From assembly GCF_964355755.1 (NCBI RefSeq), contig NC_092673.1, positions 25,784,269-25,848,268 on the forward strand: a stretch of 64,000 bases of DNA. Reading direction: 5' to 3'. The translations under genes were made by a program, and so were the position numbers. Below, in pieces: positions 44,684 to 63,845 of this stretch; the first letter of the stretch is position 1; each line of letters opens with the position of its first letter. Under the pieces are notes generated by a model. It saw only the letters and a program-made list of their open reading frames with translations. It did no database searches and was not told the origin of the DNA. Source of the stretch: Antedon mediterranea (lineage: Eukaryota; Animalia; Echinodermata).

Positions 44684-44965
44684 TTACATCCAGGATTTTT
44701 TAAATTGTTGACCAAACATTAAAGATATGACATTTATACACCCTTCCAAAAAAATTAAGGGTGGATATTCTAAATGGTATTCTATAAACATTTCTATACA
44801 GGAAGTAAAATCTAATGGTAGAAAAACCAAGCTTTTGTGATTTCCCTGAAGTTCCAGGATGAACATTAAAAAGACTAGAAAACCCAAGCTTTTTGGCATT
44901 TCCCAAGACACACAAGATGAATGTTTTCTAAAGCAGGGGAAAATCATGTGATTGGTGCTGGGGTC
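44684..44965 (-). CDS. STX18: Putative last coding exon of STX18 with a hydrophobic tail-anchor segment (KSLGFLVFLMFILEL) and the stop codon. The acceptor choice is uncertain.
   Basis: ORF 44684..44947(-). The only phase-0 acceptor that puts the hydrophobic segment in frame is ccttag|gacccc. The exon holds a 57-bp tandem duplication. The C-terminal tail after the hydrophobic segment is atypically long for a SNARE. Confidence 0.35.
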   Translation of the reverse strand, partial: DPSTNHMIFPCFRKHSSCVSWEMPKSLGFLVFLMFILELQGNHKSLVFLPLDFTSCIEMFIEYHLEYPPLIFLEGCINVISLMFGQQFKKSWM

Positions 44966-45754
44966 CTAAGGACAACCAAATTGACTCCTTACGAACTTTT
45001 TATAAAGAATGATTTAGTTTAGTAAGCCTTAATGTCAAGTGGAGTATGATTAAATTATATATTTAAAAAGTTTAAGCTGAAGATATTTAACTTTATTTTT
45101 ATCTAATTTTATTATCTTCATTTCTACTATTGATCTGTCCAACTCAAAAACAGAATATGTTCATAAACAAAAAAAATGTAAATTTGTTGATGATCTGTAA
45201 TATTTCGATATTTTTATGACGCAATCACAAATAAACCACTATTTGTATAATTTTCTTGCTTGTTTATTGTTTATACTTTATATCAGGATAAATTTTATAT
45301 ACAAAATGAATAATTAATTGTACCAATCAAGGAATAATAATGTAAATGAGCACATAAACAAGAAAAATAAAATCCACACTCGAAGACTTGCATTATTCTT
45401 GATAGCCTGGGGAAAAAATTAAAATAAGAATTAGCGAAAAATTAAGTAATAATTATTTTTACATACCTAAATTGATTCTTTAATGATTTGATATCTTTTA
45501 ATAAGCGCTTTCATTTCGAAAGGTTTAGGCCTTGGCATAGCGTCTCGTTAAAAGTAGGTGCGTTATAAAACAAATGTTTATATTCGTGCAATGTTACAAA
45601 TAATTTCATTCGGTGAAGGATGAAATGTTCTGTTTTAGAGATAGAAACCTATCATCTTTCACCTCATGAAATTATTTGTACCATTCCACTCATAAACATT
45701 CATTATTTGTATAACTAGTATATTTCAGAATGTAACATCATTAATGCAACTCAC

Positions 45755-45835
45755 TTCTCTTATAGCTTCTGTAGCACCTTCAACATTCTCAGTAGATGTC
45801 ACAGCTTTTTCTATAACTTGATCAATAACATTATC
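45755..45835 (-). CDS. STX18: STX18 exon (DNVIDQVIEKAVTSTENVEGATEAIRE) in the SNARE-motif region.
   Basis: Acceptor caatag|gat and donor gaa|gtgagt. Aligns to human ...QLVVGATENIKEGNEDIREA. Confidence 0.7.
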
Positions 45836-46334
45836 CTATTGAGTAAGCAAAGATATTTTATTTACTTATTTGGTGCAATAATAATTCAATATTAAAAATG
45901 GGTTTATTTTTTTAGATAACTGCTTACTATGGTACCATAAGATGATGATAACACAATACATATGCATATATATATTTTAGTGCATAATAATTCATTTTTA
46001 AAAAGTACATGTTTTGCAAATTTTTTGACAAATTCCTTAATATAGTACAGGAATTGTTTTATCAAAAAATTGGCACATTTTTACCATTATAATTTTTTTA
46101 CGCAACTGCTTTAATATGGTAACATAAGATAAGATGCAATATATATGCATATATATTAATTTGAGTGCATACAAATTCATTTGTAATTATTTTTTGTACA
46201 TAATAATTCATTTTTAAAAAGTCCATATTTTTGCCATTTTTCGACAAATTCAACAAATCATAAAATTATTTGTACCATTGCACTCATAAACATTCATTAT
46301 TTTGTATAATATACCACTGTATAAATGTTTTCAC

Positions 46335-46404
46335 CTGTTTTACAACCTCATCCATAAACACTGTTTGTAAAGCTGCAATATCTACAACCTTTCCTTCTAG
46401 TTCT
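46335..46404 (-). CDS. STX18: STX18 exon (R)ELEGKVVDIAALQTVFMDEVVKQ.
   Basis: Acceptor ttttag|aga and donor cag|gtgaaa. Aligns to human IEGRVVEISRLQEIFTEKVLQQ. Confidence 0.75.
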
Positions 46405-46906
46405 CTAAAAAAATAAAAGAAGCTAATTTATTAAAAAACATCAACACTAAACTATTAAACTGGATTTTGGCTCCCAAATATGCAGATGCTGTTGTTAAAG
46501 CCACTCAATTCTTCCTCCCTGAGAGTTCATGCAAAACATACAAAAATATTCTTAAATTTAATTTGAACAATTACAGTATATCTATCTATCAACCGAGACT
46601 CGAACCCGAAACCTTCTGCTTGATATGTAGATATCCTAACCATTAGACCACTGGGCTTTCATGGTATTGTTCAAACTCGATTGGAACACCTCTAGTCCCT
46701 CAATATATATATATCTTTTGACCATATAAATATTAATATTTTTTAATTTATTTTAATTGTTTACATTTGTATATTATAACCTGTATATTGTTTTTTACAT
46801 TGTACAATGAACACAAATTGGTGGTTTCATTTACAATTTCTGGCTTTTAAAATATGAGTGGAGGAGGAGGGCCATCAAACATTTTAGAAAGAAAGAGAAG
46901 TGATCT

Positions 46907-46962
46907 TATTATTTACCTGACTTCATCAAGATTATTTTTCTCCTGCAGCATCATCTGGTTTT
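46907..46962 (-). CDS. STX18: STX18 exon FQQENQMMLQEKNNLDEV(R).
   Basis: Acceptor tatttcag|ttc and donor ag|gtaaat. Aligns to human [22 protein letters not shown]. Confidence 0.75.
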
Positions 46963-47771
46963 CTTGTTGGAACTGAAATAATAAAAATAAATCAAAAATT
47001 CAAGATATAAATTTGCATATTTCGGCAGAGCATAGCACCCTCAATTTGACGATTTTAGCAAAATGAAAAGAAATATGGTGCTTTTAGTGTAGGAAGGGGG
47101 AGAGAACGAAAGTGATAATTTAAATAATTTTGTTTGGATTATTAATTATGAAAAAGCTTATTTTCTCCACAAAATTCTTATGAAATGTGTTTTTTTAAAG
47201 AATAGTGGTAACAAATTATAATAAGTTGGAATAATTTGCCGGCATTCCAGTAATAATTTATACGCAAAATTTATTTTTTAAAAAAAACACTATAGAAGCC
47301 AAAGTTCAGAATGATTTGAATGGCAAATCACCTAATTTTTAACTAACTATAGAGGGGGTTGTACAGTACTGTAAGGAAAATATTTTAAACCAATCATTTT
47401 TCCTATACTTGTTATACCCAGTTCAATTGAATTGGAATATTTTATTTAAACTTGGTAACCTCTCCCGTCTCCAAGAGGGCCCAGTTATGATCAGTGGATG
47501 TGATATACTAGTACACTGGATACAACCTCTCATCTCAAAAGATGTACTAGGTTCTTTAGATTGCACAAAGAGCTAGATGTGTAGTATAACACTGGACCTA
47601 CAGTTTATAGTCCTTATCCAAAAAGACTCATTCTACCACCAGAACCATGGAGCGAGTGAGTCTTGTATCATTGCCGATATTACGGCCACTCACTCACTCT
47701 AACGAATGAAATTTGTTATACCTGTTAGTACTGGGAATACACAAGCTTAAAGAAATTAATGAATAAAGTAC

Positions 47772-47842
47772 CATTGCAATTTCTTCAGGAGATAGCTCAT
47801 TGTCAGAATACTCTTCATGATTAGTTACTTGGTTTGATAAAT
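47772..47842 (-). CDS. STX18: STX18 exon ..LSNQVTNHEEYSDNELSPEEIAM.
   Basis: Acceptor tatttcag|at (phase 1 in) and donor atg|gtactt. Aligns to human GEDELSPEEIQM. An in-frame stop 8 codons upstream fixes the acceptor. Confidence 0.65.
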
Positions 47843-49239
47843 CTGAAATAGAATATAAAAATCAATCCCCAGATTACAAATGCTCACTTTACTGTGCTGT
47901 ATATATACGAAAATAGGGAGAATATTTTACCAGTCACTTTTCTATTAACTATTTCAATAGCAAATCAAACACAAGAACGATCAAACAAAAACGATCAAAC
48001 AATCGGTGGTTGCCACACACAACCCACGCATCTGACATACGCAAACAAAACGTTATCTCATCCGGCCGTGTTTACCAGCGGAAAAAGTCTGATCGTTTTG
48101 CAGATTGTTGTGCTATACATGGGAGTGTTATTTCCGGGCCAACTAGAGGTGCCATTTATCATGAATTTTATGTGAGCGAGAGTACCATTTCCGACCTGGG
48201 GTGTTATTTACAAAAGGGGCCTGTGGCTCAAATACTTAGTATCTGGACCCCCCGCCCCCTATTTAAAAATCCTGGATCCACCCCTTTATACAAATATGTT
48301 ATATACCTGAATTAGAAGTGGTTGCTTTTCTTAAATTTAACCCAGAGGCAAACTTGGCTTTACTGTTTTTGAGCTGGACAGATTCTAACCGAGAGCTGAA
48401 ACAGAAAGTAAGTATAAAAAGAAGTTAAGAGCCATTGTCTGTAAAAATCAAAGATTTGGTGGCAGATGTAAAAAAATGGATTTCTCTCAAATTTTTACCA
48501 TGAATAGACATTTCAATAAAAAGCATATCTATAACATTCATTTTAATTTTTAGCCTCCGTTGCCATGACAACGGTCAATTATCCAAATGTTGATGTTTTT
48601 GCCATTTTTCACAGATTTTCTATAGTGAAAAAGTACAAACTTGTATACTTATTTTAACCAAAAATACTTACAGTATACAGTTTTTGTTTATAGCAGTGTA
48701 AACAACATGTATTGAGTTCCATTTAATGTAGAAAAAAAATAAATTACAAAATGGAGTTTGGTTGATACCATTATTTTAAAAAGGGGTGTTTTTAAAAAAT
48801 ATTTTTTTTATAAAAGTATACCTCATAAACGTACCTATAACTTCTAAAGTGGTGTTTTTAAATCAATGAGGTTTTTTTAATTTGATAGTCAATAGGTTTG
48901 TCAACAATAATCATGAAAAAAACACTGGGGTAAATTTCGTACATAGGTTCTGTGTTGCCAGGAAAATACGAAAAATACAAAAAATGTAACAAAATATCAA
49001 CAAACAAAACACATGAAACACAATTTAAATATGGCTAATCCAATAATAAAATGTATATGTGGCTTGCTATAATGCTACTAGAGTCATACGAATAGTTTAG
49101 ATAAAATAGGAGAATGTGTTGCCAGGTTTATTTCAATTAATTGCCAGAAAAACAGTATTTTGCATTGAAATATTTAGTTGATGGAAAATAATGTTAAACT
49201 TGGAAATAGTTGCGTCAATGGTTTTTATAAATTTTTAAA

Positions 49240-50830
49240 TCTTGTGTAAAGAGATACAGAAAGACCTCTTAAAATATCTGACCTTGTAAATAGGTCATTT
49301 GAGGTCAAAAGGGGTCAGAATGCAAAACAGAACAGGTCCCCACTTTACTACAACTATTAATTTTTGATCAAAATTTACAAGATAGTTCATAACAATTCTC
49401 AACAATTTTCATATTTTACCTATAGTGTTACCTTAGCAACCATTTCTATGTGTAACTAAGGAAAGTAATTTTAAAAAAAACGTAAAAAATGGCGTTTTTA
49501 TAAATACAAAGAATTGATTGCATTTGTAATTTTTCTCAATTTTACTTCTACTGCATTCCATTAATGACAAACTTGACCTTGTAAATTCATTCATTTTGAG
49601 GTCAAAATTTTACCATAGTGACTGTTTCTATGCGAAAATTTCAAAAAAATAAGGAGTTTTTCATAAATACAAAACATTTTTTCTACATAGTTTTACATTT
49701 CTACTTTTTGCCAAATTTACTTTAAATACTGAATCCTAATAATCTCAGAAAGAAAGTCTTGACGAATCTTAATAAAGGTAAAAAAATGACCTTTAGTGTT
49801 ATCTTAAACCTGTTTACGTAACTAATGATATTTAAAAAAAAAAATTAAATATGGAGTTTTCATGAAAAAAAAAATGTTTACATATTGAGGTCAAATGACA
49901 TCAACATTTTACCTATAGTGTATTGTAGCAACTGTTTCTATACGTAACTAAGTACAATATTTTTAATATGGGGTTTCATGACTACAAACAATTGATAACA
50001 TAGCTTTACTACCTTTTCCCAAATTTACTTATCTACTGAATCCCAGAAAATGTCTGAGCTTGTGAAAGGGTCATTTGTTGGGTCAAGTTATGTCAAAATG
50101 TATTATTAATGTTTGTTAGAACCTGTTTCTATGCGTAACTAAGGATAATTGTTTTTTTAAATACAGTTGAACCTCCCGTAAGTGGCCACCCTTGGGACCT
50201 GGAAAAGTGGCCGCTTATAATTGTAGGCCTATTATTATTTATAATCAGGTGGTTTAGTATTTTTTAGCATTTTCAGACAAATTTTAAAAACTTTTATCAT
50301 ATGAAAAATGGTCGGTCAAAATCTGTGTAGTTTTCTCATCTCTTAACAGTAATGTTTTTAAAACCTCTTCAAAATAAAGCTAATATATAAAGAAATACAA
50401 TAAACATGCACCTCTAATTCATAGGTCCATGCAATAAGTATCACATTTTTCGATTGGCCGCTTACAAAAAATCTCATTTTGTATAAAAAGGTGCCCGCAG
50501 CTGCTTACGGTAAGCACTAAATGCACTACTTAGATAGGAAGAACAAACAGGCTTTTCAAAGTGCGTCCGTTAAGGGAGGTGGCCGCTGTAAATAAAATAT
50601 GGGGTTTTCATGAATAAAAATAATCACAGAAGAAAGTGCTTACGAATATGACCTTGTGAAACGGTAATTTGAAAATGCAAATAAGGCATGCCTGCTACTA
50701 ATCTACAAATTTAAATTTGTATAAGATAAATATGCAAAATCTAAAGAATATCTCAATTTTAGTTACCATAGTAACTGTTGCTATGCATAACTAAGGGAAA
50801 TTAAATAATTATCAGATAATTATTAATTAA
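49240..50830. repeat. Degenerate minisatellite array with units of about 300-330 bp and about 5 copies, inside an STX18 intron. Units carry clustered nuclear-receptor-like half-sites (TGACCTTGTAAATAGGTCATTTGAGGTCAAAAGGGGTCA) and the block ACCATAGTRACTGTTTCTATGCGTAACTAAGG.
   Basis: Recurrent motifs appear at about 49281, 49571, 49880, 50050 and 50650. A foldback of about 420 bp with GGCCGC motifs (50165-50585) interrupts one unit. Confidence 0.6.
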
Positions 50831-51099
50831 TAATTAATACTGAATCCAACCATCACAGTAAAAAAAATTTAGAATTTAAAACCAATATTTAATAATAAAG
50901 TGTGATATTTTACATGCTGACCTTAAATGAAATGAAATTTCAAATCAGGGCTTCAATATTTGTTATGTAGCATTAACATACCTGAGTATATCATTGACTT
51001 TTGATTGGTTCTATTTTGGGGAGGGGAAAGTGGTGGATCCAGGACTTTTAAATAGTTAGGTGGTTGAAGGCGAGGGTCTAAAAACTTAACTTTATGTCC

Positions 51100-51360
51100 T
51101 ATCTTTTGCATTGCAATTTTTAACTTGGGGTGGGTGGCGGCTTGGAGAAAGGGGGAGGGGGTGGAATGGAGGAGTTTGAATCCGTCTATTCATTGGAGCG
51201 ATAGTAGCGGCAGTGTGGGTGGTGCTTGAAATGCATGCATTTGACACTCTATAGTGGATGATCGACCAAAGTGTTGCAGTTTATCTTTTTGTGGTTATAG
51301 TCGTGGTGGGGGGGGAGGGGTGGTAGTCGAAAGTGGTGGTAGATGGGCATGTGGGATCTG
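51100..51360 (+). repeat. G-rich, G-quadruplex-prone block on the plus strand (GGGGTGGGTGGCGGC...GGGGGAGGGGGTGG...GTGGTGGGGGGGGAGGGGTGG). It is the C-rich template strand of the STX18 intron.
   Basis: Multiple runs of three or more Gs, with short loops, are visible directly. Confidence 0.5.
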
Positions 51361-52430
51361 CTTAGGTTAGCAAATAAAAGAAGTAAACAAATGAAAGAGG
51401 AGCTTCAAAATAAGAGAGGAGTAATCTGTTGCAAAGATTAAAATTCACAACGATCTGATAATTTATTCAAATTTCCAGAGGATATAACCTATAAAATGAC
51501 ATTAAAACTGGGAATTACAGAATCTATAATTAAAAATTAATTTTTTTTCTCTCAACACAACTAGAACTATATAAAACATTAAGAATTTTTCTGACCAATG
51601 AGTTTCAAATCAAATAATCAAAGAAAATAAAATGTTTTTACTAATATACCATGTTTTTTTTTTATAAAAATGCCTATGTTTCTTGCAACACTGCTTGTAG
51701 ATTTTAAATTTACCCCAGTATTTTATTTTAGAAATCAATTATTAAACATTAGAACTACCTATTTGTAATAAATCAGCTAAAAAAATACACCACTTTGGGC
51801 GTTATGGTGAAGTAAAGTTTAGTTGCATTGAACAATTTAAAAAAAGTGAAAAACACCCCTTTTTAAATAAATGGTATCTCCCAAAGTATGAAATAAAAAA
51901 AAAAAAAAAAATTTGAAACAGGTACACAATGCATTGTTATTATGCATACACTAATTATTTTGTTATAATTAAATGAACAAAACAAAAATATTGTTCATCA
52001 AAGTAGTACCAATATCCATTTTAAAAAACCTTAAAAAAGGACAAAAACACAAATTTGGCCGTTGCCATGGAAATATACGTGTGAAAAAAAAAATACTTCA
52101 TATTTGGTTTCTCTCAACATATATATAGCCATGTGCAAAATTTGAAAGAAATCCATTTTTTTGATTCTGCCACTCTTTTTGATATTTCTTTGATTCTTAC
52201 AGACAATGGCTCTTAAATATCTTACATAACATATAGTATGTTTGTACATAGGTCAAACCAATTTGGTTAGTCCAGAGTATGTGTGTTACAGTTAGTTTTT
52301 ATTGTATTTTAAACTTGTTACAAGAGATGCCATACCTTTTATTTGAAGGGTAAAGTTTTTATCTAAATTAACATACAATTAAAGGAAAATTTAAATAAAT
52401 CCTCCAGTTAGATTCAGTACAACACCTAAT

Positions 52431-52640
52431 AATAATATCCTGGATTTATATAGCGCCTAAATGTTGTGAAACCTCTAAGCGCTGAGCATTATTACCACAT
52501 AATGTGGTCTTGATCTAACCGGCTTTCCATTTATAAACCTGGGTGGAGAGAGGCAAACGTAAGTAAAGTATCTTGCCTAAGGATACAAGCAATGCGGCGA
52601 GAGTTGGATTCGAACCTCGATCACACGTCCTATTAAGAGG
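52431..52640 (-). mobile_element. Family-2 tRNA-derived SINE (about 330-bp unit) with a T-arm-like GGTTCGAATCC motif and an (ATT)n tail. Other copies lie at 7215-7390, 34930-35400 (split by a family-A MITE), about 35490-35640, 39870-39990 (head GGGCGTGTGGCGCAGT...GGGTTCAAATCC) and 61384-61520.
   Basis: Shared blocks are CTAAGCGCTGAACATTATTACC, GCAGCTAGTA[CA]TCAGCGCAAAGTTGTGTCTTGATCTAACCGG and CACCCAGGTGTATAAATGGGTACC. The GFEPMTS-type ORF artefacts are diagnostic of translated T-arms. Confidence 0.65.
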
Positions 52641-52784
52641 ACACTTTCCTGTGAAACTAATTAGAAGCAATATATGTTTCAACTTTATGGCAATCATTTG
52701 TGTCCTGAAGGCGTCCCCTAAAAGGGGGTTCTACTGCACAACAAACATAGCAGGTTACCAGTTCCATATACAGTAGGTACGTAC

Positions 52785-52851
52785 ATTCTTTTCTTGTCAA
52801 CCACTTTCTTGACACGTAAAGCTCTCTGTTCACTGTATAGCTTACAAACAC
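52785..52851 (-). CDS. STX18: STX18 exon (G)[21 protein letters not shown].
   Basis: Acceptor tttacag|gtg and donor aat|gtacgt (phase 2 out). Matches human [21 protein letters not shown] almost exactly. Confidence 0.8.
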
Positions 52852-53543
52852 CTGTAAATAATATGTAAAATTTCCTCAATAAAATAATTTAATTTCCAGA
52901 AAAAAATTGTTTAGTTGAATCTCCCTGCACATAGACCTCTCATAAATAGACACCACACACGCAATGGACACACATCGATAAGTATGTATGTTCTTCATAT
53001 ATACTGCAAATATTATTCTCCCTATCCGACTGAACAATCCTAAAAATGTTTATATATTTTTAGTGTTAAAATGTCCAAATGTGACCTCCATCCACACTCA
53101 TGTTTCTCTGAATCAAATTTATAATTAATCTATGTTTTATTAGAATGTACTGTATTATTTGATGTGTGTGGAAAATTTAATCAAATAAACAAAAAAACAT
53201 CTACAATTTACCAATACAAAATCTTTAATACAAAATTGTGAATAATTTATAATGAACTAATAAATTACAAGGAAAAAAGAGTTTCCACGAAGTATAATAA
53301 TAATTGTTATACAGTGCCTAATACATATTTTTCTAGGCGCTTTACACACAAAAAAAGAAAAAAAAAATATCCAAAAATAACGAAAGCATATTGAAGGTGA
53401 TGCAGGAAAAGATTTTTACCGCACTTTTCTGCAACGAAAACTCGTTAAAACATGATTCACAGGAACCGAAGTTTGTCAAACTTGCTGTATGTGGACATTT
53501 TTTCGTGACCCCTTATGGGAGTCTGTGTAATAGATGTACGAAC

Positions 53544-53621
53544 CTTTTAAGTAATTGTCTAATAGTTCAAACGTAGCTTCTCTGTGTTTTTGTACCTCTT
53601 CTGTTGCCTCCTGCTTCATTG
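53544..53621 (-). CDS. STX18: STX18 exon (A)MKQEATEEVQKHREATFELLDNYLK.
   Basis: Acceptor ttaatag|caatg and donor aaag|gttcgt. Aligns to human AHKEIHSQQVKEHRTAVLDFIEDYLKR. The frame matches ORF 53476..53703(-). Confidence 0.75.
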
Positions 53622-53959
53622 CTATTAACAACAAACAATAAAATACTGTAACTTTCATTGAAAAAAAATGTAAAGAGTTAAGTTTTAACTGAGCTTGAAT
53701 CATTTTTAGGAGAGCTTTCGATTTACAATGACAAACAACTTTGAAACAAGAAAGGTCATGTCAACTCATAGTGTACATGCAGGGAATTTGGGTAGTGCTT
53801 ACTCCCTCTATTTCTTTCCAAAGTTTATTAATATTTATTGTGTAATTTATTATTAAATATTAAGTGGCATTCTCTCAGATAAAATTATTTTCAAGGATAA
53901 ATTTTTAATGGTCAATGCATCTACATGCTTTTATATTGCATCTCTCTGTCTCTCTTTAC

Positions 53960-54065
53960 CCTCTTGTTTAAATGATCTGATTGCATCTAAGCACGTTCTC
54001 ATAAATACTTGAGCGTCTGCATCTATCTGGTCCCGATCAGCTTCCGTCATTGAATTTGAATCGGA
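53960..54065 (-). CDS. STX18: STX18 exon SDSNSMTEADRDQIDADAQVFMRTCLDAIRSFKQE.
   Basis: Acceptor atttaaag|tcc and donor gag g|gtaaag. Aligns to human [30 protein letters not shown]. Confidence 0.8.
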
Positions 54066-54184
54066 CTTTAAATGACTACAAATTAAACAAATTCTATTTA
54101 AAAAGTATTTTTTATTGTATATAATTTCATAACATAAAAATAAAATAATGTTGTGATGATTTTAATGAATTTTTTTAAACAAAC

Positions 54185-54902: not shown

Positions 54903-55049
54903 CATTTCTTTGGATTTGGTGGAGAATTCTGTTTTTGGACGACTGGACTTTAAAATTGAACTTTTTAAATTGTCTTGACCAGTTCCTAGAGCTTTATTTC
55001 TTGTTCGAACAGTTTTAACTGAAGCTTTGAAAAGTGCTGTTATGTCCAT
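54903..55049 (-). CDS. STX18: STX18 exon 1 with the start codon (MDITALFKASVKTVRTRNKALGTGQDNLKSSILKSSRPKTEFSTKSKEM).
   Basis: ORF 54792..55049(-). Donor atg|gtaggt. Aligns to human [24 protein letters not shown]...SPRPKGDFSSRARE. Confidence 0.8.
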
Positions 55050-55340
55050 CTTGCGTTTCGCTGGTTTTGATGATGTGGGAAATCTGGAAATTTAGTCTGC
55101 GCTGCCCAGTTGTGTGACCTTTTGCGTTTAAAACATGGCCATTATGACGGGAATTGTAACGCGATTAAATAACGTTTACCTACGTTTTGTCTAAGATTAA
55201 ACGCGTTTTGTTAAACTGTTAACTCATGAAATCACTGCTTGTCGCTGGAACTCAGAAAAAAGAAAGAAGGAAAAAGGGAAGGAAAGGAGTTGTCAGATTG
55301 ATCAATTTTAGCCTCGTATTAAACGTTTTTATTATTAATT
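55050..55340. promoter_or_regulatory. Putative bidirectional promoter, about 290 bp, shared by the divergent STX18 (-) and VPS51 (+) genes. It is locally CpG-containing and relatively GC-enriched.
   Basis: The STX18 ATG at 55049 (minus) and the VPS51 ATG at 55341 (plus) are head-to-head. CpG dinucleotides (gcgtttcgctgg, aacgcgatt, aacgcgtttt) are concentrated in this interval, unlike the flanking AT-rich DNA. Confidence 0.55.
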
Positions 55341-55353
55341 ATGGCTACTTCAG
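55341..55353 (+). CDS. VPS51: VPS51 exon 1 (MATS + 1 nt).
   Basis: ATG followed by the donor tcag|gtaaac. Joining to exon 2 gives MATSGGDKIDEAGEE.... The exon is short, so the start assignment carries only moderate confidence. Confidence 0.5.
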
Positions 55354-55848
55354 GTAAACTACAATTTAATGATAGTCCGTTTTAATAGTTTATATCGCAT
55401 TTTATTAAAATATAGTTAGCTAAAATTACCAAAATTAGGATTAATAATAGCAAGGCAGGGCTAGGCCTGCCTTCCCTGTTTGTTTTTTGGTTGTGTACTC
55501 GGTTTTTCAATGGGTAAAGGGGAGTGTGCCGCCCTTTTTAGGTGCCTCTTTTTCTTAGGCATAGGTATACATGGGCGGCGGGCTAGGCCTAGGTAGGTGT
55601 TAATAACATTTTACTTTCTAGCCTTTATTTGCATTATGTTTTTTAAAAGGCCTTTCTTATTATTTGTATTTTAGTAGGAAAGAGTGTAATTTCACACTTT
55701 TTTATAAAATAAATAATTCTGTTAGTGTTAATAAAAACATATTAAATTGAGCCTACTGTATCCATAATTTAAAATTGCAATAGAGGTTAGATAGTAATAG
55801 AATAGACCCTTTCTTTTAATTAAATAAATATATTGTTTTGTGATTCAG

Positions 55849-56070
55849 GAGGCGACAAGATAGATGAAGCGGGAGAAGAAATCCGCAGACGACGAAAGCA
55901 TGGGATGTTGAAGCTGTACTATGGAATGGAGGAATCAAATAAGGACAACCAAGATTCAAATCCAATTGATATTAATGGTGCTCAGTTTAATCCACAGGTG
56001 TATCTGTCACGACTGATGAAAGAAAAGCGCTTAAATGAGTTGATAGACAGAGAAAGCGATATGGTTAAAC
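55849..56070 (+). CDS. VPS51: VPS51 exon 2 (GGDKIDEAGEEIRRRRKHGMLKLYYGMEESNKDNQDSNPIDINGAQFNPQVYLSRLMKEKRLNELIDRESDMVK).
   Basis: Acceptor tgattcag|ga and donor aaac|gtatga. Aligns to human RRRKAHGMLKLYYG...DLNGAHFDPEVYLDKL...DSETDMVRQ. Confidence 0.8.
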
Positions 56071-56204
56071 GTATGACATATTTTTTTTATTTGATTGCCA
56101 AATATGCACTTTATCTTTTTCCCCATACAGTATATGGCAATCCTTTTGGCTGGGAGAATTTTTCAGTCAATTTTCTTTCTCCATCTTTCTAAAGATTTGT
56201 AACA

Positions 56205-56330
56205 CCCATGTCCATGGACATGATGATGTCCCCATGGACATGATGATGTCATATCACTATCATATTTGGGCATATCACTATCACATTTTTTTGTCACATA
56301 AAGTTTGATAGTGTAGACAGATTGTAAAAT
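56205..56330. mobile_element. Family-A MITE, 5'-truncated, in VPS51 intron 2.
   Basis: The 3' TIR is ttgtcacataaagtttgatagtgtagacag, and the internal gacatgatgatgtc repeats are present. Confidence 0.7.
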
Positions 56331-57396
56331 TGTATTGATTTTTTTTAAACATTTAATTTAACAGATAAGTACTTTAAACTGGTCACACCATGTCAGTGTG
56401 GAGTTGTGGCTTGGTGGTTATGATGCTTGACTACCAATCCAAGGGTTCAAGTCCTGTCATATGTCAGGACTCCAAAGACTTGTAATAAGTCTTTGTTTAT
56501 GTAGAGCATCTTGTGTATGTTTGTCTTGTGAACAGGATTGCCACCTTTAAGAAGGATAGTGAATGAATTCACTTGTGGTTATCCAAGGGCAATTTGCCAA
56601 AAATGGAAATAAATAAGAAAACAGAATGAACTAGAAAGCCACTCCGAGAGGGCATACCTCCGCCTACTGTAAAATTCTCCTACATAAGATTTCTCCGGTA
56701 AAAAAAAATATATATATATATTTGTGTGTGTCTTATAATGCTCTTTGTGATTTAGGCTAATTTCATTACAAGCATGTGTATGCGAGTTTGGTGTAATGGT
56801 TATGTAACAAGCCTTTCAATTAACAATAGCTTCAGTTGACTAACAATAGAACAGCAACGCGAAAATCAAACGAGTGAATTTGAAAAGAAATAGGTTTTTT
56901 AAACTACTCGCATCAAAAAACGTGCACATTAAATCAAATTATGTTTTAAAATTACAAATCAAAAATTATAACTCTTGCCTCTTGTTCAAACATGAAGTTT
57001 TTTGGACAAGTAGTTCTCGAGAAAATGCAATTTCAGTTTACTTGTTACTTTAAGACTGCTCGCCGGCTTTTGAAAAATTCTGTCCTATCTTTTAACACTA
57101 GCAGGTCTAAAAAAGTATACTAAAAAGTGGTCCAGAATTGGGACTGTGGTTCCAAATGGTCCCAAAATTTAATGGAATGGTCCTTGACCACATATCTATC
57201 TGTCTATTCATTTTGGTAAAGATCTTGTAATTACTTTTTGAGTAATCCTGCTAACAAACAAACAAACAAACACACGCTACCGATTACATATACCTCCTTG
57301 GCGGAGGTAAACAATTACAATTACAGCCAATGACCAGATAATAAGAATGCGACCACCACTTTACAATATTTTTTTTAATATGATTTTATTTTTCAG

Positions 57397-57482
57397 AAAT
57401 TTGTTCTCTAGATAGTGACATGCAAACCCTTGTTTATGAAAATTATAATAAATTTATTAGTGCTACGGATACTATTAGAAAA
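57397..57482 (+). CDS. VPS51: VPS51 exon 3 ([29 protein letters not shown]).
   Basis: Acceptor tttcag|aa and donor aaa|gtaagt. Near-identical to human [28 protein letters not shown]. Confidence 0.9.
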
Positions 57483-58215
57483 GTAAGTGACAAAATAAAT
57501 TATATATTTTGAAATGTAATTTCACTATAAATATCCTAATGATCATGTCCATTTGTATAGCGGAATCATTGTTACACTTTTCAACTACATGCAGCTTCTT
57601 CCCTGGATGTCAGTGCTGCCAATTGCTCTCATGTCTGTGAGTGAATTAGTGCACAACTCCTACCCATCTTGAAAGATTTACTAGGTTCTTTGAAGTGCAC
57701 ACAATTAAAAAAAGTGCCTATGGTTTTTACTCCTGTTTGGATGGATAAGACTATTTACCACCAGAAAAAATCTCGGATAGACTAACTAATTTTTCACTAA
57801 CCCATAGGTCCAGTGTACACATCTGACTCATGTGCACTTTAAAGAACCTAGTACATCTTTGGAGACAATTAGGGTAACCCCGGTGTACTAGTATACACAC
57901 AGCCACTGTCACCCACAGACAATTGTCATAACTCATTAAGAGGGCTCCTTGATTGTCTGCATACGTTGTTAAGGGACCCCCCTATAAATAAGGTGAAATA
58001 AAAATAAACAAAATAAAATCTATTTCTTCAACATTCAATTATTTCGGTATTATTCATTATTACATAATACTTGTACAAGACTGAACTAAAAGTTTAAAGT
58101 ACAAAACATTGCCTGATATATAATTTTTACCTGAATCTTCCAAACATCTCACTTTGGAGTCATGGTTTTCCTTGGCAATTTTTCTAAATAATATCAACAC
58201 AATACAATATTACAG

Positions 58216-58371
58216 ATGAAGAATGATTTCAAGAAAATGGAGGATGAGATGGATAGGTTAGCTACAAACATGGACGCCATTACAGAATTCAGTGCAGGAA
58301 TAAGCAACACATTGCAGGAAAGAAGGCAGCAAATATCAACTCTTAGTGGTGTCCATTCACTACTTAAAAAG
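58216..58371 (+). CDS. VPS51: VPS51 exon 4 ([52 protein letters not shown]).
   Basis: ORF 58216..58404. Acceptor tacag|atg and donor aag|gtgttt. Aligns to human [52 protein letters not shown]. Confidence 0.9.
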
Positions 58372-58453
58372 GTGTTTTTTTATTCTATTTTTTTAAATTT
58401 TTAAATATACATCTACCGTTTCTTGTTTCCACAATTCTAGTACAGTATTATGT

Positions 58454-58617
58454 AAAGCTCTGTCTACACTATCAAACTTTATGTGACAAAAAAGTGTGAT
58501 GTGCCCACATATGGTAGTGATATGCCCAACAATGGTAATGATATGACATCATCATGTCCATATATGGGCACATCACATAATTTTGTCACATAAAGTTTGA
58601 TAGTGTAGACAGAGCTT
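58454..58617. mobile_element. Family-A MITE in VPS51 intron 4. This is a clean copy with a TA target-site duplication.
   Basis: atgTA|AAGCTCTGTCTACAC ... GTGTAGACAGAGCTT|TAcatg. Confidence 0.85.
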
Positions 58618-58930
58618 TACATGTGTTTATTGAAATGGTCTCTGATAACCTTGTTTCTTTTAAAATCAAGATCATGCATTCCATTGTTCAAAATAATGCA
58701 TAACTAATTTGTCTGTCATGCTGATGTATTTGTTTTGTTTCTACTGTATATTATATATTTTATTGTATGTTTTAGTTAGTGGCAGTTTTTATCGCAGTTG
58801 TTTTCAATTGGCTATTGGTTTGTGCTTCAATTTTGTATTGTAATGTTGAAATGAAGACTAGGGGAAAAAAAATGATAAACAAATATACTGTAGCATGTGG
58901 ATGTTTAACAATAGTTGTTTTTATTTACAG

Positions 58931-59004
58931 TTACAATTTCTATTTGAGCTTCCTGCAAGGTTAAAGAAGTGTATTGAAATGAAAGCTTATGGACAAGCTG
59001 TCAG
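58931..59004 (+). CDS. VPS51: VPS51 exon 5 ([24 protein letters not shown]).
   Basis: Acceptor tttacag|tta and donor cag|gtatat. Aligns to human [25 protein letters not shown]. Confidence 0.85.
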
Positions 59005-59117
59005 GTATATAATAGTTAATTAACACTCTCTGTCATAATTGGGACAAGGGCCACAATTCTTATAGGGTCTGGTAGAGTCATTAGCCCAGACATAGTATGA
59101 TCAATGATAAAAGTCTT

Positions 59118-59180
59118 AAGCTCTGTCTACACTTTCAAACTTTATGTGACAAAAAATGCCCATATATGGACAGAGCTTTA
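59118..59180. mobile_element. Internally deleted family-A MITE (about 62 bp) in VPS51 intron 5.
   Basis: aagctctgtctacactttcaaactttatgtgacaaaaaatgcccatatatggacagagcttta. Confidence 0.65.
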
Positions 59181-59405
59181 TGTTAAAATTCTGATTCTAA
59201 GATGTAATGTTTTCGGCTACGATATGATAAATCAGTGAACTGGTGCGCTACTCTTTCCACGATAAAGATGCACTGTCTTTTAAATGCACTTGTGTACACT
59301 GAGTCTTGAGGTATACTGTATGTCCTAGAAGACTACCGCCAGAACTAGGACCCAGAGAGTCTTGTACTATTTAAGGATCAAGAATTTGTGTTTATTCTTT
59401 CACAG

Positions 59406-59538
59406 GTATTATGCTAAGACCAGAACCGTTCTGAACCAGTATCAACATATGCCATCCTTTCATGGTATACAACAAGATTGTAGTGACATTGTTACTGAAT
59501 TAAGATCAAAGCTAAGGGAACAATTTAGAGACAAAGAG
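59406..59538 (+). CDS. VPS51: VPS51 exon 6 (RYYAKTRTVLNQYQHMPSFHGIQQDCSDIVTELRSKLREQFRDKE).
   Basis: Acceptor tcacag|g and donor gag|gtgagg. Aligns to human [42 protein letters not shown]. Confidence 0.85.
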
Positions 59539-59639
59539 GTGAGGGAAGCTGCGCATAATAATGTATGCAGTATAATTATGATTATCATGTCCTTTTTAGC
59601 AAAACAATTAGTTACTTGCATTTTATTTTGTTATGATAG

Positions 59640-59728
59640 TCCACACCAAAACAGCTTGCAGAGTGCGTGGATCTTCTGTTGCAACTCAAGGAACCAGCTG
59701 ATGAACTCTGTGACGAGTTCCTGGCACG
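59640..59728 (+). CDS. VPS51: VPS51 exon 7 (STPKQLAECVDLLLQLKEPADELCDEFLAR).
   Basis: Acceptor gatag|tcc and donor cacg|gtgagt. Aligns to human [28 protein letters not shown]. Confidence 0.85.
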
Positions 59729-59746
59729 GTGAGTATAGTCCTGAAG

Positions 59747-59907
59747 CCTTGTCTACACTATCAAACTTTATGTGACAAAAAAAATATGATGTGCCCATAT
59801 ATGGACATGATGATGTCATATCACTACCATATTTAGGAATATCACTACTATATTTGGGCACATCACACTTTTTTTGTCGAACTAGTTTGATAGTGTAGAC
59901 CGAGCTT
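59747..59907. mobile_element. Family-A MITE beginning 18 bp downstream of the VPS51 exon-7 splice donor.
   Basis: ...cacg|gtgagtatagtcctgaAGCCTTGTCTACACTATCAAAC ... GTGTAGACCGAGCTTaca. Confidence 0.8.
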
Positions 59908-60273
59908 ACATATTCTTGTGTTGCAGTAAAATTATACACAAACACAAAGTAAATCCAGTAGAAATTGGTTTAAGGTAAAAATTTGATTTATTTTTTTATC
60001 CTGGGTGACCTCTTTAGTACTATACTCCTCTTCCAGTGGGCCAATAATCAGAACACCAGGAGATTATCCCCTTCTCTTTTTAATTGTTTTCTTTGTTATG
60101 AAAATCAGCTTTATGTCCTATCTGAAGGATAGGGGTTCAAATCCCTTATGAGTCTTTTTTCTCACACTGCAGTTTCATGAGATTCATGAATATCATTGAG
60201 CACATACAGACACCGCTGATAATGTGCTACGAAAGTCTGAAAGATAATGGTAAATTTTATTTATTCCGTGTAG

Positions 60274-60430
60274 TGCCCAGGAGAAACTTGATGAAGATTT
60301 GTCTGAGATGTCAGATCAGGTAGACCCTGCGAAAGCCATTGAAGTGTCTACCCCTATAAAGGAAATGGTAGAGTCCACAGACAAGAAAGAGGAAAGGCCT
60401 TCAGAGAAGTATATGAGAAATATGCCAATG
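60274..60430 (+). CDS. VPS51: VPS51 exon 8 (AQEKLDEDLSEMSDQVDPAKAIEVSTPIKEMVESTDKKEERPSEKYMRNMPM). The region is poorly conserved and acidic.
   Basis: Acceptor ccgtgtag|t and donor atg|gttcgt. The frame continues the R codon from exon 7. It is the only open frame between stop codons that connects to exon 9. Confidence 0.6.
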
Positions 60431-60528
60431 GTTCGTATTAATTGTTGTATATGAATTGCAATAGAAATAGAAATTATTAATTGTAAAATGCATTATTTTC
60501 TTTGTTATTTTTCTTTTTTTTTATGTAG

Positions 60529-60635
60529 GATATTTTGGAATTTATTCACAAAGGTTGCACCAATTTCCTTGGTAATATTTGTCTTGTGATTGCATCTTAC
60601 AAAGAACTGTTTGTCAACAGACAAACACATTCAGA
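60529..60635 (+). CDS. VPS51: VPS51 exon 9 (DILEFIHKGCTNFLGNICLVIASYKELFVNRQTHS).
   Basis: Acceptor ttatgtag|gat and donor ga|gtaagt. Aligns to human [28 protein letters not shown]. Confidence 0.8.
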
Positions 60636-61229
60636 GTAAGTTCTTTATTAATCATGTTTTTGTCAGTCAAGCCTAACTTTTTTCATGCATTCGCAGCCAC
60701 AAATCACTATGCCAGCGATCAACAAAAACAAACAAACCCAAAATTGTATACTAAACTATCGTAAGTAAAATGTACACATTTTTACCAAGAAATTATTCAG
60801 AAATCATGGCCATCTTCGACTAGACTGTCATGGTAGGAATTTAAGAAATAAAAAAAAAATTAACCAACTAGTCAATATACCATTTTTCATTAAATTCTCA
60901 AAATTTACTCCATTTTTACCTTCCCTGCTGACTTGCGACGGCTCTTGTGTGTGTTTTTATCTTTTATTAGATTTAAATATTTTTAATTCTGCCTTAATTC
61001 TTACACATTTTTATGGAACATTTTTGACATGTTATTGTTTGTTATGTTATAAATTTGGCCATTTGGCTATGAGATGTAAAGTTAGTCAATATTTTTGTAT
61101 TTTTTGGAAATAGAGAGAATGTATATATATATCTGCTCCCCATAAAATCTAATCTATATATCCTAGTTTACTCCCTAGCCTTCATCTTGTTATCTCCGGT
61201 TTCTATTAAATATCAACATTTCTTATTAG

Positions 61230-61341
61230 TCCCCAGGAGCAGGACCAACTAAAGGAGGTTGCCCACGCAAAGTTAGCAGAGTTTGTCAAGTCAAGGATGG
61301 AGCAATATTTCTCATGTGTGGAACAAAGAATTCAAGCTGAG
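61230..61341 (+). CDS. VPS51: VPS51 exon 10 (DPQEQDQLKEVAHAKLAEFVKSRMEQYFSCVEQRIQAE).
   Basis: Acceptor cttattag|t and donor gag|gtattg. Aligns to human [25 protein letters not shown]. Confidence 0.75.
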
Positions 61342-61929
61342 GTATTGTTTACAACCAGACATAAATAAATTATTAATTAGTAAATAATAATAATATTCTG
61401 GATTTATAAAGCACCTAATGTTGTGAAACCTCTAAGTGCTGTACATTATTATTACCATGGTAATTTTTGGATCAAACACGTATGGAAACATACTTCCATA
61501 ATGCAGCTAGTAATCAGCGCAAAGTTTAAAGATACATGTATATTTGTAAGTCATTAACTGTCCAAAGTGACATTTTGGTTCGCACATATTTGGGAGGTTT
61601 GCAACCTTATGAATACGAAAACATACATTCATCTTTTATTTTCATAGAAATAGTCGTATTCAAAGCAAATATACTTTTTTGGTCTATTTTTTTGCATTGA
61701 ATTAAGATTGTATATAATTATAGTATAAACAGAGACAATTTATGAAAATGAATTTACTCAAAATATTTGACAAAATTAGGATAAATAGCAGTTTTTGCGC
61801 TAGGCCTGGGCAGCCCAGTCACCTGCTGTTGGCTCAAAATCTTCTATATTCTTTTCTAAATATGAAACAGTTTTTTACATTTTATAAGTCTTAATTTAAA
61901 TTCATTTTCTTACCTTTTTCAACATTTAG

Positions 61930-62250
61930 AAGGAATCTGTAGAGAACTCAATGCTTGTTAGAGCTCTGGACAGATTCCATCGCCGCCTCCAAGCTGTCGA
62001 TGATCTACTTCCAAAACTCAATATCATCGCTCGAGGAACAGAAATTGTTGCCAATGCTGCCCGAGAGAGGTCGCTGTTTTATTTAGAAGGATTGAAAAAT
62101 CACTTTATCGAATGCACTACGGATGTGCGACAGAAGTTGTGTACGCCACATCTCATTGGAAAACAAGAAACATCAAATCTGATGGATATGCTGTCAATGA
62201 TGTCATCATCAATTGTGGAACAAATGAAAATTGTTCTTGCTAATCTGCAG
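61930..62250 (+). CDS. VPS51: VPS51 exon 11 (KESVENSMLVRALDRFHRRLQAVDDLLPKLNIIARGTEIVANAARERSLFYLEGLKNHFIECTTDVRQKL...ANLQ).
   Basis: ORF 61951..62295. Acceptor catttag|aag and donor cag|gtaagg. Aligns to human SLLVRALDRFHRRL...[35 protein letters not shown]. Confidence 0.9.
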
Positions 62251-62267
62251 GTAAGGCTGCTGTCAGT

Positions 62268-62378
62268 TAGCTCTGTCTACACTACTACAAACTAGTTTGA
62301 CAAAAAAAAGTGTAATGTGCCCACATCATGGTAGTGATATGACATCATCATGTCCATATATGTTTGATAGTGTAGACT
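62268..62378. mobile_element. Family-A MITE beginning 17 bp downstream of the VPS51 exon-11 splice donor.
   Basis: ...cag|gtaaggctgctgtcagttAGCTCTGTCTACACTAC ... TTTGATAGTGTAGACtg. Confidence 0.75.
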
Positions 62379-62497
62379 GTTTCTGTGACTGTATACACCA
62401 TTGGCACTTTGGGAAACAACTGTAACATTTTCCTATCCCTATAAAAGAGAGATTATCCCTCCTTCATCTCTTCTGTCATTGTCATCTTAAGATCTGT

Positions 62498-62590
62498 CTA
62501 CACTATCAAACTTTATGTGATGTGCCCATATATGGACATGATGATGTCATACCACTACCATATTTGGGCATATCACCACCATATGTGTAT
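62498..62590. mobile_element. Partial family-A MITE in VPS51 intron 11.
   Basis: agatctgtctacactatcaaactttatgtgatgtgcccatatatggacatgatgatgtcat... Confidence 0.6.
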
Positions 62591-62725
62591 CTTCTTTTCT
62601 CCAATATCTCGTCACAAAATTGAACTTTTCTTTGCTCGGACACTAATTGTTTTCAATCCTTACTCTGTTCTAGATTCTGTAATTCTTTTTTTTTAAAATA
62701 AATGACATGCACATTTGTGTTATAG

Positions 62726-62848
62726 GGTTTTACCTCTGCTGACCTGACGTTTGCCAACACAGCTTATTTCCAAGGCACTTTCTGTGTTCATGATGTGCGT
62801 GAAGTGGTGGTAGTAGGATTCCTTGAGTATCTGTTTAAAGCATCATGT
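62726..62848 (+). CDS. VPS51: VPS51 exon 12 (GFTSADLTFANTAYFQGTFCVHDVREVVVVGFLEYLFKASC).
   Basis: Acceptor gttatag|ggt and donor tgt|gtaagt. Aligns to human [36 protein letters not shown]. Confidence 0.8.
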
Positions 62849-63482
62849 GTAAGTTAACAATATCAGAGATGTCTATTTTCCAATAACTATATATTTATTA
62901 TTATTTTATTAACAATTTTTGAATATGACATTATTTATTAACTTGAATAAAATTGGAATAAAATAACAAAATTATTTGTTCTTTTTTTTTCTGCCTGAAC
63001 TTTATTAAAACTATAAAATTACCTATTCAGTTTAAATTTATTAATCTGTATTTTTCATGTTTTGAGGGACAATGTTATATATATCAACATTAAGACATCA
63101 TCATCAATTTTGTTGTGTTTTTTTGTAAAGGTAAATGTATATTGTTCCTTAGTTAAAATTGTGACTGATTAATTTTGGATTAAATCCTATACTGCAGACC
63201 CATGTACAGTATGATGATCAGCTCATACAGTAGTAGTAGTACTATTCTCTGCTGTTTTCATATTCTGTATCCTGCATTATATGTGCATTTACATAATAAC
63301 ATTCCATCCTGAAGGACTCAAACAAAAGCACAAGTCTCGAACATGTGACTTAATTCCTTACCATTGTGCAACCTTTAAGAAGGATAGTGAATGATTTCGC
63401 TTATGGTTATCCTTGGCAATTTGCCTAAATATTTCATTTTATACTCTTTTTACTAATCTTAACATACTTTTTGTTTTTTTAG

Positions 63483-63587
63483 GATCTCTGTGAGCGTAGT
63501 GGTGAGAAAGGATCAGCCCCTGCAGCTATTATTCTACTGCTCTCTAGACTTCACATGGACTTTAGTAACTCAACAATAAACCAAATT
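63483..63587 (+). CDS. VPS51: VPS51 exon 13 (DLCERSGEKGSAPAAIILLLSRLHMDFSNSTINQI).
   Basis: Acceptor ttttttag|gat and donor att|gtaagt. Aligns to human [33 protein letters not shown]. Confidence 0.8.
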
Positions 63588-63704
63588 GTAAGTCTTTAAT
63601 AGCTATTTAATCGTCTTTATTCACCTAGAGAAAAATTTGAGAATTCAGAATTTATATAACGATGATTTTAAATAGTAAACATTAATTTCTATTGTTATTT
63701 CAAG

Positions 63705-63845
63705 GTTACAACAGCTGATAAGCAGTTTTCACTTGACCCACGTTGTAAGGTGACCCCTGCTGCCGACCTTTCAACCAAAGCTAAGAAGACGGCTCAGAAG
63801 CTTCTCAACCAATATGTACAAATACAGGGCTTACAAATCTCTCAG
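63705..63845 (+). CDS. VPS51: VPS51 exon 14 (VTTADKQFSLDPRCKVTPAADLSTKAKKTAQKLLNQYVQIQGLQISQ). The gene continues beyond the window end.
   Basis: Acceptor tttcaag|gtt and donor cag|gtaaat. Aligns to human [45 protein letters not shown]. Confidence 0.8.

Follow-up and report, generated by a model that had tools for sequence, protein, structure and literature searches.

The head-to-head STX18-VPS51 gene pair of Antedon mediterranea: an apparently crinoid-specific adjacency across a presumed bidirectional promoter

In the crinoid Antedon mediterranea, a feather star, the genes coding for the ER Qa-SNARE STX18 (Ufe1) and for VPS51, a subunit shared by GARP and EARP, are divergently transcribed from neighbouring start codons. 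This raises the question whether their juxtaposition was selected as a means of joint control, or whether STX18 simply acquired this partner by rearrangement. We examined the pair in a stretch of 64,000 nucleotides (contig NC_092673.1, positions 25,784,269 to 25,848,268), hereafter referred to as the window.

Splicing of 11 minus-strand exons (55049..45314) yields an STX18 product identical over 311 of 311 residues to P0121, the syntaxin-18-like protein of A. mediterranea, with the ATG at 55049-55047 and the stop codon at 45316-45314:

45314..55049, minus strand, STX18 coding region (11 exons, 311 aa plus stop; matches P0121)
54903..55049, minus strand, exon 1 (ATG 55049-55047; donor ATG/GTAGGT)
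54189..54256, minus strand, exon 2 (followed by a GC-AG intron, donor AAG/GCGAGT)
53960..54075, minus strand, exon 3
53544..53621, minus strand, exon 4
52785..52851, minus strand, exon 5 (followed by a 4389-bp intron)
48307..48395, minus strand, exon 6 (variable linker; overlooked with the human guide sequence)
47772..47842, minus strand, exon 7
46917..46972, minus strand, exon 8
46335..46404, minus strand, exon 9 (SNARE motif region)
45755..45835, minus strand, exon 10
45314..45406, minus strand, exon 11 (transmembrane anchor, stop TAA)

Orthology is indicated by a protein search, in which identity to vertebrate STX18 was 50-58% over the full length, and the Syntaxin-18_N domain (Pfam PF10496) is complete (profile positions 1-87 of 87; E = 1.6e-21; 76.8 bits versus a cutoff of 30.6). 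With the Pfam SNARE model PF05739, the draft STX18 fell short of E = 0.001, as do most STX18 proteins in the database; exons 8-11 align with the SNARE and anchor region of human STX18, and the hydrophobic tail is present. The left limit of the locus, 44684, is presumed to be the 3' UTR end.

On the opposite strand, 14 exons (55341..63845) together encode residues 1-613 of P0241, the 803-residue VPS51 of A. mediterranea, with 100% identity and 100% coverage; the C-terminal 190 residues and the remainder of the gene lie beyond the end of the window:

55341..55353, plus strand, VPS51 exon 1, coding part (13 nt, ATGGCTACTTCAG, phase 1, donor CAG/GTAAAC)
55849..56070, plus strand, exon 2
57397..57482, plus strand, exon 3
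58216..58371, plus strand, exon 4
58931..59004, plus strand, exon 5
59406..59538, plus strand, exon 6
59640..59728, plus strand, exon 7
60274..60430, plus strand, exon 8 (variable acidic linker)
60529..60635, plus strand, exon 9
61230..61341, plus strand, exon 10
61930..62250, plus strand, exon 11
62726..62848, plus strand, exon 12
63483..63587, plus strand, exon 13
63705..63845, plus strand, exon 14 (last exon wholly inside the window; reaches residue 613 of 803)

The VPS51 N-terminus, MATSGG, agrees with P0241, so that the 13-nt first coding exon is included in the match. The N-terminal domain common to Vps51, Exo84 and COG1 (VPS51_Exo84_N, PF08700) was found with E = 8.3e-24, and identity to VPS51 of other animals is 50-63% over 96-100% of the query. 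Protein searches with a 257-aa VPS51 query returned short fragments and no crinoid protein, while the 613-aa query returned the RefSeq proteins. Queries based on human STX18 and VPS51, used as tblastn leads only, missed STX18 exon 6 and VPS51 exon 8, both of which were recovered later via crinoid proteins and Anneissia DNA. Both RefSeq proteins are recorded on the same contig of 36,192,472 bp. The gene identities, strands, start codons and spacing of the original prediction are correct, as the RefSeq proteins of A. mediterranea are reproduced, and the tiny first coding exon of VPS51 that it proposed is real, being backed by the same-species RefSeq protein and by a gene model from the crinoid Anneissia japonica.

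The exon models describe a head-to-head pair, the two genes being adjacent, on opposite strands and divergent, with nothing between them; their ATGs are separated by 291 bp (55050-55340). Two features were delimited around this junction:

55050..55340, no strand, interval between both start codons (G+C 37%, 14 CpG, observed/expected 1.46; taken to comprise a TATA-less bidirectional promoter and the 5' UTRs of the two genes)
54541..55344, no strand, CpG-undepleted domain (the interval together with exon 1 and the 5' portion of intron 1 of STX18; 33 CpG in 804 bp, observed/expected 1.14)

No Rfam family and no tRNA was found anywhere in the window, 55050-55340 included. Upstream ATGs occur only in the central part of the interval (55134, 55140 and 55225 on the minus strand; 55070-55226 on the plus strand), and the leaders adjoining each start codon (55050-55133 for STX18 and 55229-55340 for VPS51) are devoid of them. 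The two transcription start sites would lie within 1 kb of each other if neither gene begins at a non-coding exon further upstream, with which such leaders are compatible.

The CpG observed/expected ratio of 1.46 in the interval compares with 0.69 for the whole window and with 0.53 and 0.40 for the bodies of STX18 and VPS51, respectively. The interval had been described as the only CpG-dense spot in the window, which proved false. About 3.2% of all 291-bp windows across the 64 kb hold at least 14 CpG and group into nine regions, and the eight besides the interval match or exceed its CpG density, the densest being 8397-9379 (26 CpG per 291 bp) and 14931-15581 (24). At least five of these eight match repeats elsewhere in the window, and no second copy of the 54541..55344 domain was found elsewhere in the window. 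A six-frame ORF listing of positions 1-44000 showed no obvious long coding exons. CpG islands are defined by a length of at least 200 bp, a G+C content of at least 50% and an observed/expected ratio of at least 0.6. Taken together, these values do not describe the interval, which has the length (291 bp) and the ratio (1.46) but a G+C content of 37%; "CpG-undepleted promoter patch", amid CpG-depleted gene bodies, is the more fitting term.

The same pair occurs in a second crinoid. In an independent assembly of A. japonica (GCA_011630105.1), the coding sequences of VPS51 and STX18 start at 9857 and 10001, respectively, and diverge across 143 bp, the orthologous genes having the same orientation as in Antedon (78% protein identity for STX18 and 92% for VPS51). 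Anneissia VPS51 likewise begins with a 13-nt coding exon, ATGGCCTCTTCAG followed by GT. The spacers differ, that of Anneissia being 143 bp rather than 291 bp long, with 54% G+C versus 37% in Antedon, and containing a GCGCATGCGC palindrome of which the Antedon window has no copy. By alignment and k-mer comparison, the two intergenic regions are not alignable and share no word of 8 nt or longer, the longest common words being two 7-mers; since the spacers cannot be aligned, no conserved promoter element can be named. The crinoid sample comprises two species, both comatulids, from two families, and persistence of the pair in both families could reflect selection or inertia alike.

A synteny comparison, proposed with the original prediction, located the adjacency in these two crinoids only. 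It is absent from the seven other genera compared, namely Acanthaster, Patiria, Lytechinus, Holothuria, Ptychodera, Patella and Branchiostoma. In the acorn worm Ptychodera flava, a TM2-domain gene is divergent from STX18 at 251 bp, and in the sea cucumber Holothuria leucospilota a TM2 gene lies opposite STX18, with its first-exon match about 260 bp away. As in Antedon, a divergent gene thus lies opposite the 5' end of STX18 at a distance of a few hundred bases, and in Ptychodera a FUOM (RbsD_FucU) gene is also found tail-to-tail downstream of STX18, as in Antedon; the difference is that the divergent partner is a TM2-domain gene and not VPS51. No TM2 gene was detected in the 64-kb Antedon window. 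In the starfish Acanthaster and Patiria, an RNase_T gene is the divergent neighbour. The sea urchin Lytechinus has no STX18 partner within 10 kb, and its VPS51 is on the same chromosome, about 17.4 Mb away. STX18 and VPS51 are reported on contigs of equal size in both Ptychodera and Apostichopus. Because the TM2D-STX18 arrangement is common to a hemichordate and a holothurian, it is the likelier ancestral state in Ambulacraria and probably the older one. The linkage had been proposed to be either lineage-specific or ancestral and later lost; its confinement to two crinoids supports the former, while the TM2D-STX18 pair in hemichordate and holothurian speaks against the latter.

These observations are, in our opinion, probably best explained by an ordinary bidirectional housekeeping pair of crinoid origin, with a TATA-less promoter and a partner whose identity is an accident of rearrangement. 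The interval would act as an unmethylated, TATA-less promoter of the housekeeping class, from which RNA polymerase II would initiate in both directions at start sites roughly 100-290 bp apart. An intrachromosomal rearrangement in the crinoid lineage would have set VPS51 where the TM2-domain gene ancestrally stood. The promoter region of STX18 has a divergent neighbour in most sampled ambulacrarians and the partner varies, crinoids presumably having acquired a new one. As the divergent partner of STX18 changes across ambulacrarians, its identity most likely reflects a chance rearrangement among genes of broad expression, and its choice is most likely not a device coupling ER and Golgi retrograde traffic. 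Partners would thereby have been swapped at one promoter across Ambulacraria, from TM2D to RNase_T in starfish and VPS51 in crinoids. Start sites, two-way firing and co-expression at the interval are what we infer from sequence.

Head-to-head pairs account for about 10% of genes, and their start sites are in the majority 1-400 bp apart, the modal and largest group being 101-200 bp (PMC4089025, PMC1487180). The Antedon pair resembles such metazoan pairs (e.g. BRCA1-NBR2) in its divergent layout, short spacer and broadly needed genes, in an interval that is presumably TATA-less and is CpG-undepleted relative to its surroundings, and in a predicted start-site spacing of about 100-290 bp, which falls within the 1-400 bp class. 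It differs from the vertebrate type of CpG island in the 37% G+C of its interval. No description of the STX18-VPS51 combination was found in the literature, and the papers examined for a tie between bidirectional promoters and VPS51 or STX18 were irrelevant to the pair. The pair adds one more case to a very common class of gene arrangement, and it already figures in the public annotation. Its significance beyond annotation is small, and it has no bearing on how tethers and SNAREs work; it offers a clean case, confirmed twice over, of a bidirectional pair specific to one lineage, and possibly a small test case for whether neighbours of housekeeping promoters are exchanged neutrally.

An alternative that we regard as unlikely is that the two genes are mere neighbours with separate promoters and no shared control, or that transcripts of one or both start inside the other gene, through an upstream non-coding exon or antisense overlap. 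The gene ends are known as CDS coordinates only, 291 bp would suffice for two separate core promoters, and the CpG-undepleted domain reaches about 500 bp into exon 1 and intron 1 of STX18 (54541-55049), which is compatible with a more leftward VPS51 start. However, upstream ATGs leave the leader at each start codon free while several sit mid-interval, and the 143 bp between the Anneissia ATGs leave little room for separate promoters.

Selected co-regulation, in which crinoids fixed and kept the juxtaposition because one promoter for the ER SNARE and the GARP/EARP subunit balances both retrograde routes, appears quite unlikely. The products of both genes are established components of retrograde membrane traffic, and the pair was kept in two crinoid families despite changes in intergenic length and sequence. 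The SNARE partners of GARP/EARP, however, are the TGN/endosomal proteins STX6, STX16 and VAMP4, while the tether with which STX18 acts at the ER is NRZ/Dsl1; STX18 and VPS51 are therefore not a cognate tether-SNARE pair. Moreover, elsewhere in Ambulacraria STX18 is paired with unrelated genes (TM2D and RNase_T), VPS51 faces dynactin in Branchiostoma, and no promoter motif is common to both crinoids. A statistical inclination of head-to-head partners to share function (PMC1487180) counts in favour of co-regulation, but a genome would hold roughly a thousand of these pairs, if not more, among which a few with a common theme would be expected by chance. That the crinoid-specific fusion of the two 5' ends is an adaptive innovation, its shared promoter coordinating the Golgi-to-ER and endosome-to-Golgi machineries under selection since the two families diverged, despite sequence turnover, is very doubtful. 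To read co-regulation of a tether and a SNARE from the divergent layout, as in the original prediction, goes beyond the data.

A chimeric join of two unlinked loci, for which no supporting point was found, deserves practically no credence, since the same head-to-head pair recurs in another genus whose genome was assembled independently, the first exons of both genes are situated hundreds of bases away from the junction within unique, N-free sequence, and the STX18-FUOM order on the other flank agrees with other ambulacrarians.

Some minor features of the interval were also recorded. A purine tract lies at 55254-55290. A sigma-70/terminator scan, inapplicable to a eukaryote, was disregarded and served only to flag a palindrome. 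Clustered TTAAACGY elements were set aside as a promoter motif because Anneissia has no copies, and are regarded as a local feature, three of the seven copies in the window lying within the 291-bp interval.

Collinear exon series were located in the window by tblastn, with the human STX18 and VPS51 proteins serving as leads only. The STX18 series is on the minus strand, running from 55049 to 45317; that of VPS51 is on the plus strand, beginning at 55884 and continuing to the window end. The spliced STX18 product (11 minus-strand exons, with canonical splice sites and one GC-AG intron) is identical over 311/311 residues to its nearest database match, P0121, annotated as 'syntaxin-18-like [Antedon mediterranea]', the next nearest being from Anneissia japonica. 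Likewise, the 613-residue product of the 14 plus-strand VPS51 exons matches the 803-aa A. mediterranea VPS51, P0241, with 100% identity and 100% coverage. This makes the window DNA of a crinoid, a feather star, and both genes are already present in the public annotation; P0121 and P0241 are each reported from a contig of 36,192,472 bp. Pfam domains Syntaxin-18_N (1.6e-21) and VPS51_Exo84_N (8.3e-24) were detected in the respective products. The GC donor of STX18 intron 2 (AAG/GCGAGT, 54187-54188, minus strand) is needed to obtain the RefSeq protein sequence. The features of the locus are as follows.

Features of the STX18-VPS51 locus
About 36221-41447, plus strand: exons of an RbsD_FucU gene (fucose mutarotase, FUOM-like), tail-to-tail with STX18
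44684: left limit of the originally predicted feature, a putative 3' UTR end
55049-55047, minus strand: STX18 ATG, context aagATGG
55341-55353, plus strand: VPS51 first coding exon, only 13 nt, ATGGCTACTTCAG followed by donor GTAAAC
From 55849, plus strand: VPS51 exon 2, in phase with the 13-nt exon
To 63845, plus strand: end of VPS51 exon 14, the right limit of the originally predicted feature

Because its first coding exon is so short, the VPS51 start codon at 55341 was the weakest point of the original prediction. No in-frame ATG was found in exon 2 upstream of the conserved RRRRKHGMLKLYYG stretch, so that an upstream coding exon is required. The phase of exon 2, the N-terminus of the RefSeq protein from the same species (MATSGGDKIDE, exactly as predicted from the window) and the annotated Anneissia VPS51 coding sequence, which opens with an orthologous 13-nt exon (ATGGCCTCTTCAG followed by GT), all agree with this start. 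With both start codons supported, the predicted ATG-to-ATG gap of 291 bp (55050-55340) follows.

This interval contains 14 CpG at a G+C content of 37%, with a CpG observed/expected ratio of 1.46, compared with 0.53 and 0.40 in the STX18 and VPS51 gene bodies and 0.69 in the whole window (G+C 31.7%). It is therefore a CpG-undepleted patch flanked by CpG-depleted gene bodies, but its 37% G+C is too low for a CpG island as usually defined. The patch as a whole (54541-55344; observed/expected 1.14) reaches through STX18 exon 1 and 360 bp into intron 1. The assertion that the interval is the only CpG-dense spot proved wrong, as about 3.2% of all 291-bp windows, in nine regions, hold at least 14 CpG. 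The highest densities per 291-bp window occur at 8397-9379 (26 CpG) and 14931-15581 (24 CpG). Four of the dense regions carry a common repeat with inverted ends GGTTCCCACTAG..., and a tRNA-derived SINE, with five or more additional copies, makes up a fifth (43986-44391); the window's densest CpG spots are MITE-like copies, not promoters. No second copy of the promoter patch was found elsewhere within the window.

The locally richest CpG stretch lies at the 5' end of STX18 intron 1 (54700-54902; G+C 48%, 14 CpG in 203 bp). It contains imperfect copies of a unit resembling CCGAA(T/A)CTTC, occurs once in the window and does not align to Anneissia STX18 intron 1; it may belong to a promoter-proximal unmethylated domain.

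Neither ATG has a TATA box at a workable distance within the interval, where no Rfam family or tRNA was detected either. Upstream ATGs are limited to its middle (minus strand, 55134, 55140 and 55225 only; plus strand, none beyond 55226). Leaders free of upstream ATGs would accordingly start within 55050-55133 for STX18 and 55229-55340 for VPS51, placing the putative start sites about 100-290 bp apart. Such a spacing would fall within the majority class of head-to-head pairs, most of which are 1-400 bp apart, with the biggest group at 101-200 bp (PMC1487180). Together, the CpG pattern and the predicted spacing fit an unmethylated housekeeping promoter that would be active both ways.

In Anneissia japonica, a different comatulid genus, VPS51 and STX18 are also divergent, their coding sequences starting at locus positions 9857 and 10001 on opposite strands with 143 bp between. 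Since that assembly is independent, a chimeric assembly, raised in the original prediction as a possible objection, is excluded. Between Antedon and Anneissia the intergenic region changes in length (291 vs 143 bp) and G+C (37% vs 54%), with no words of 8 nt or more in common. A GCGCATGCGC palindrome occurs in the Anneissia region only, whereas a TTAAACGY cluster is confined to that of Antedon. The arrangement is conserved between the two crinoids, but no specific regulatory sequence is. Of the seven TTAAACGY sites in the window, three lie in the interval (55124-55131, 55197-55204 and 55319-55326), which is also rich in the related words AAACGC and AACGCG (4 and 3 copies vs about 0.1 expected).

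The adjacency is absent in the non-crinoid species sampled, and tblastn and tblastx with the window VPS51 as query gave no VPS51 match in the STX18 loci of Acanthaster, Lytechinus and Ptychodera.

Neighbours upstream of STX18 or VPS51 outside crinoids
Acanthaster planci, STX18: divergent RNase_T gene
Patiria miniata, STX18: 443-aa gene, RNase_T beyond
Lytechinus variegatus, STX18: no gene within 10 kb; VPS51 about 17.4 Mb off on the same chromosome
Holothuria leucospilota, STX18: TM2-domain gene (locus L006, 2968-9745)
Ptychodera flava, STX18: TM2-domain gene, 251 bp away (locus L005, 7008-9749)
Patella vulgata, VPS51: unrelated 568-aa gene
Branchiostoma belcheri, VPS51: dynactin

Matches to the Ptychodera TM2 gene were found in the Holothuria locus, one of them a segment some 260 bp from the STX18 ATG. 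Being common to a hemichordate and an echinoderm, TM2D-STX18 is the likelier ancestral arrangement, which argues against the suggestion that STX18-VPS51 was ancestral and later lost. The divergent partner at the STX18 promoter region seems to have been swapped between lineages, two starfish having RNase_T in place of the probably ancestral TM2-domain gene. On the 3' side, the tail-to-tail RbsD_FucU gene recurs in Anneissia, Acanthaster, Patiria and Ptychodera, and the STX18-FUOM pair is therefore much older than STX18-VPS51. In Ptychodera and Apostichopus, STX18 and VPS51 are reported on contigs of equal size; with the shared Lytechinus chromosome, this suggests that both genes lie on one chromosome across Ambulacraria and are neighbours in crinoids alone. 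The two genes occupy separate chromosomes in vertebrates (4p16 and 11q13 in human). The Branchiostoma gene, dynactin p150 (CAP_GLY/Dynactin domains), is divergent about 1.5 kb upstream (locus L007, 1-8479 vs 10001), another head-to-head pairing of VPS51 with a transport gene.

The tether that STX18 works with at the ER is NRZ/Dsl1, and VPS51 is part of GARP/EARP, whose partners are TGN and endosomal SNAREs. The two are consequently not a cognate tether-SNARE pair, and the functional argument for their co-regulation is weak. Most ambulacrarians sampled have a close divergent neighbour at STX18, its identity differing by lineage, and VPS51 faces yet other genes in Patella and Branchiostoma. Selection for co-regulation may have played a part, but no observation made here requires it. 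On the simplest reading, broadly expressed genes would tolerate a common promoter region, and rearrangement would have exchanged the partner. Of the original prediction, the structure of the pair is confirmed and is conserved within the crinoids sampled; the CpG statement and the ancestral origin are not upheld. No description of the pair was found in the literature searched; it adds one more case to a very common type of arrangement and is already visible in public annotation.

Several repeats were also observed. The SINE-like repeat at 43986-44391 (G+C about 50%, A-box-like GTGGCCGAGCGGTTAAG, B-box-like GGTTCGAGGC) has copies at 24327-24546, 47507-47689, 14113-14323, 57798-57909 and 28987-29101, some in introns of STX18 and of VPS51. 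The MITE-like CpG-rich family, with inverted ends GGTTCCCACTAGCGACGCAACG..., lies at 8630-9075, ~15250-15460, ~20115-20271 and ~6287-6352. VPS51 intron 1 carries a near-perfect 22-nt palindrome, AAGGCAGGGCTAGGCCTGCCTT, and CTAGGCCTAG-rich DNA (55452-55473, 55570-55600), CTAGGCCTAG itself having a single occurrence in the 64-kb window; the orthologous Anneissia intron (locus L002, ~9400-9760) has abundant TAGGCC/CTAGGCCTAGG runs. A dispersed repeat whose translations contain KYGSDMTSSCP-like strings is common to introns of both genera (window 6839-6925, 10782-10916, 17170-17259, 58446-58619 and 59740-59906; L002 16480-16656), suggesting that a transposon family is of old date, or remains active, across crinoid genera. 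Finally, the window opens with a tandem array of seven copies of the 19-mer ACCCCTCCCTAACTACCTA (1-135), a segment at 15725-19070 is locally triplicated and includes a recurring open frame IVIYIDILLYFLF... as well as two occurrences of a 21-mer array, and a 51-bp repeat occurs twice at 22805-22908.
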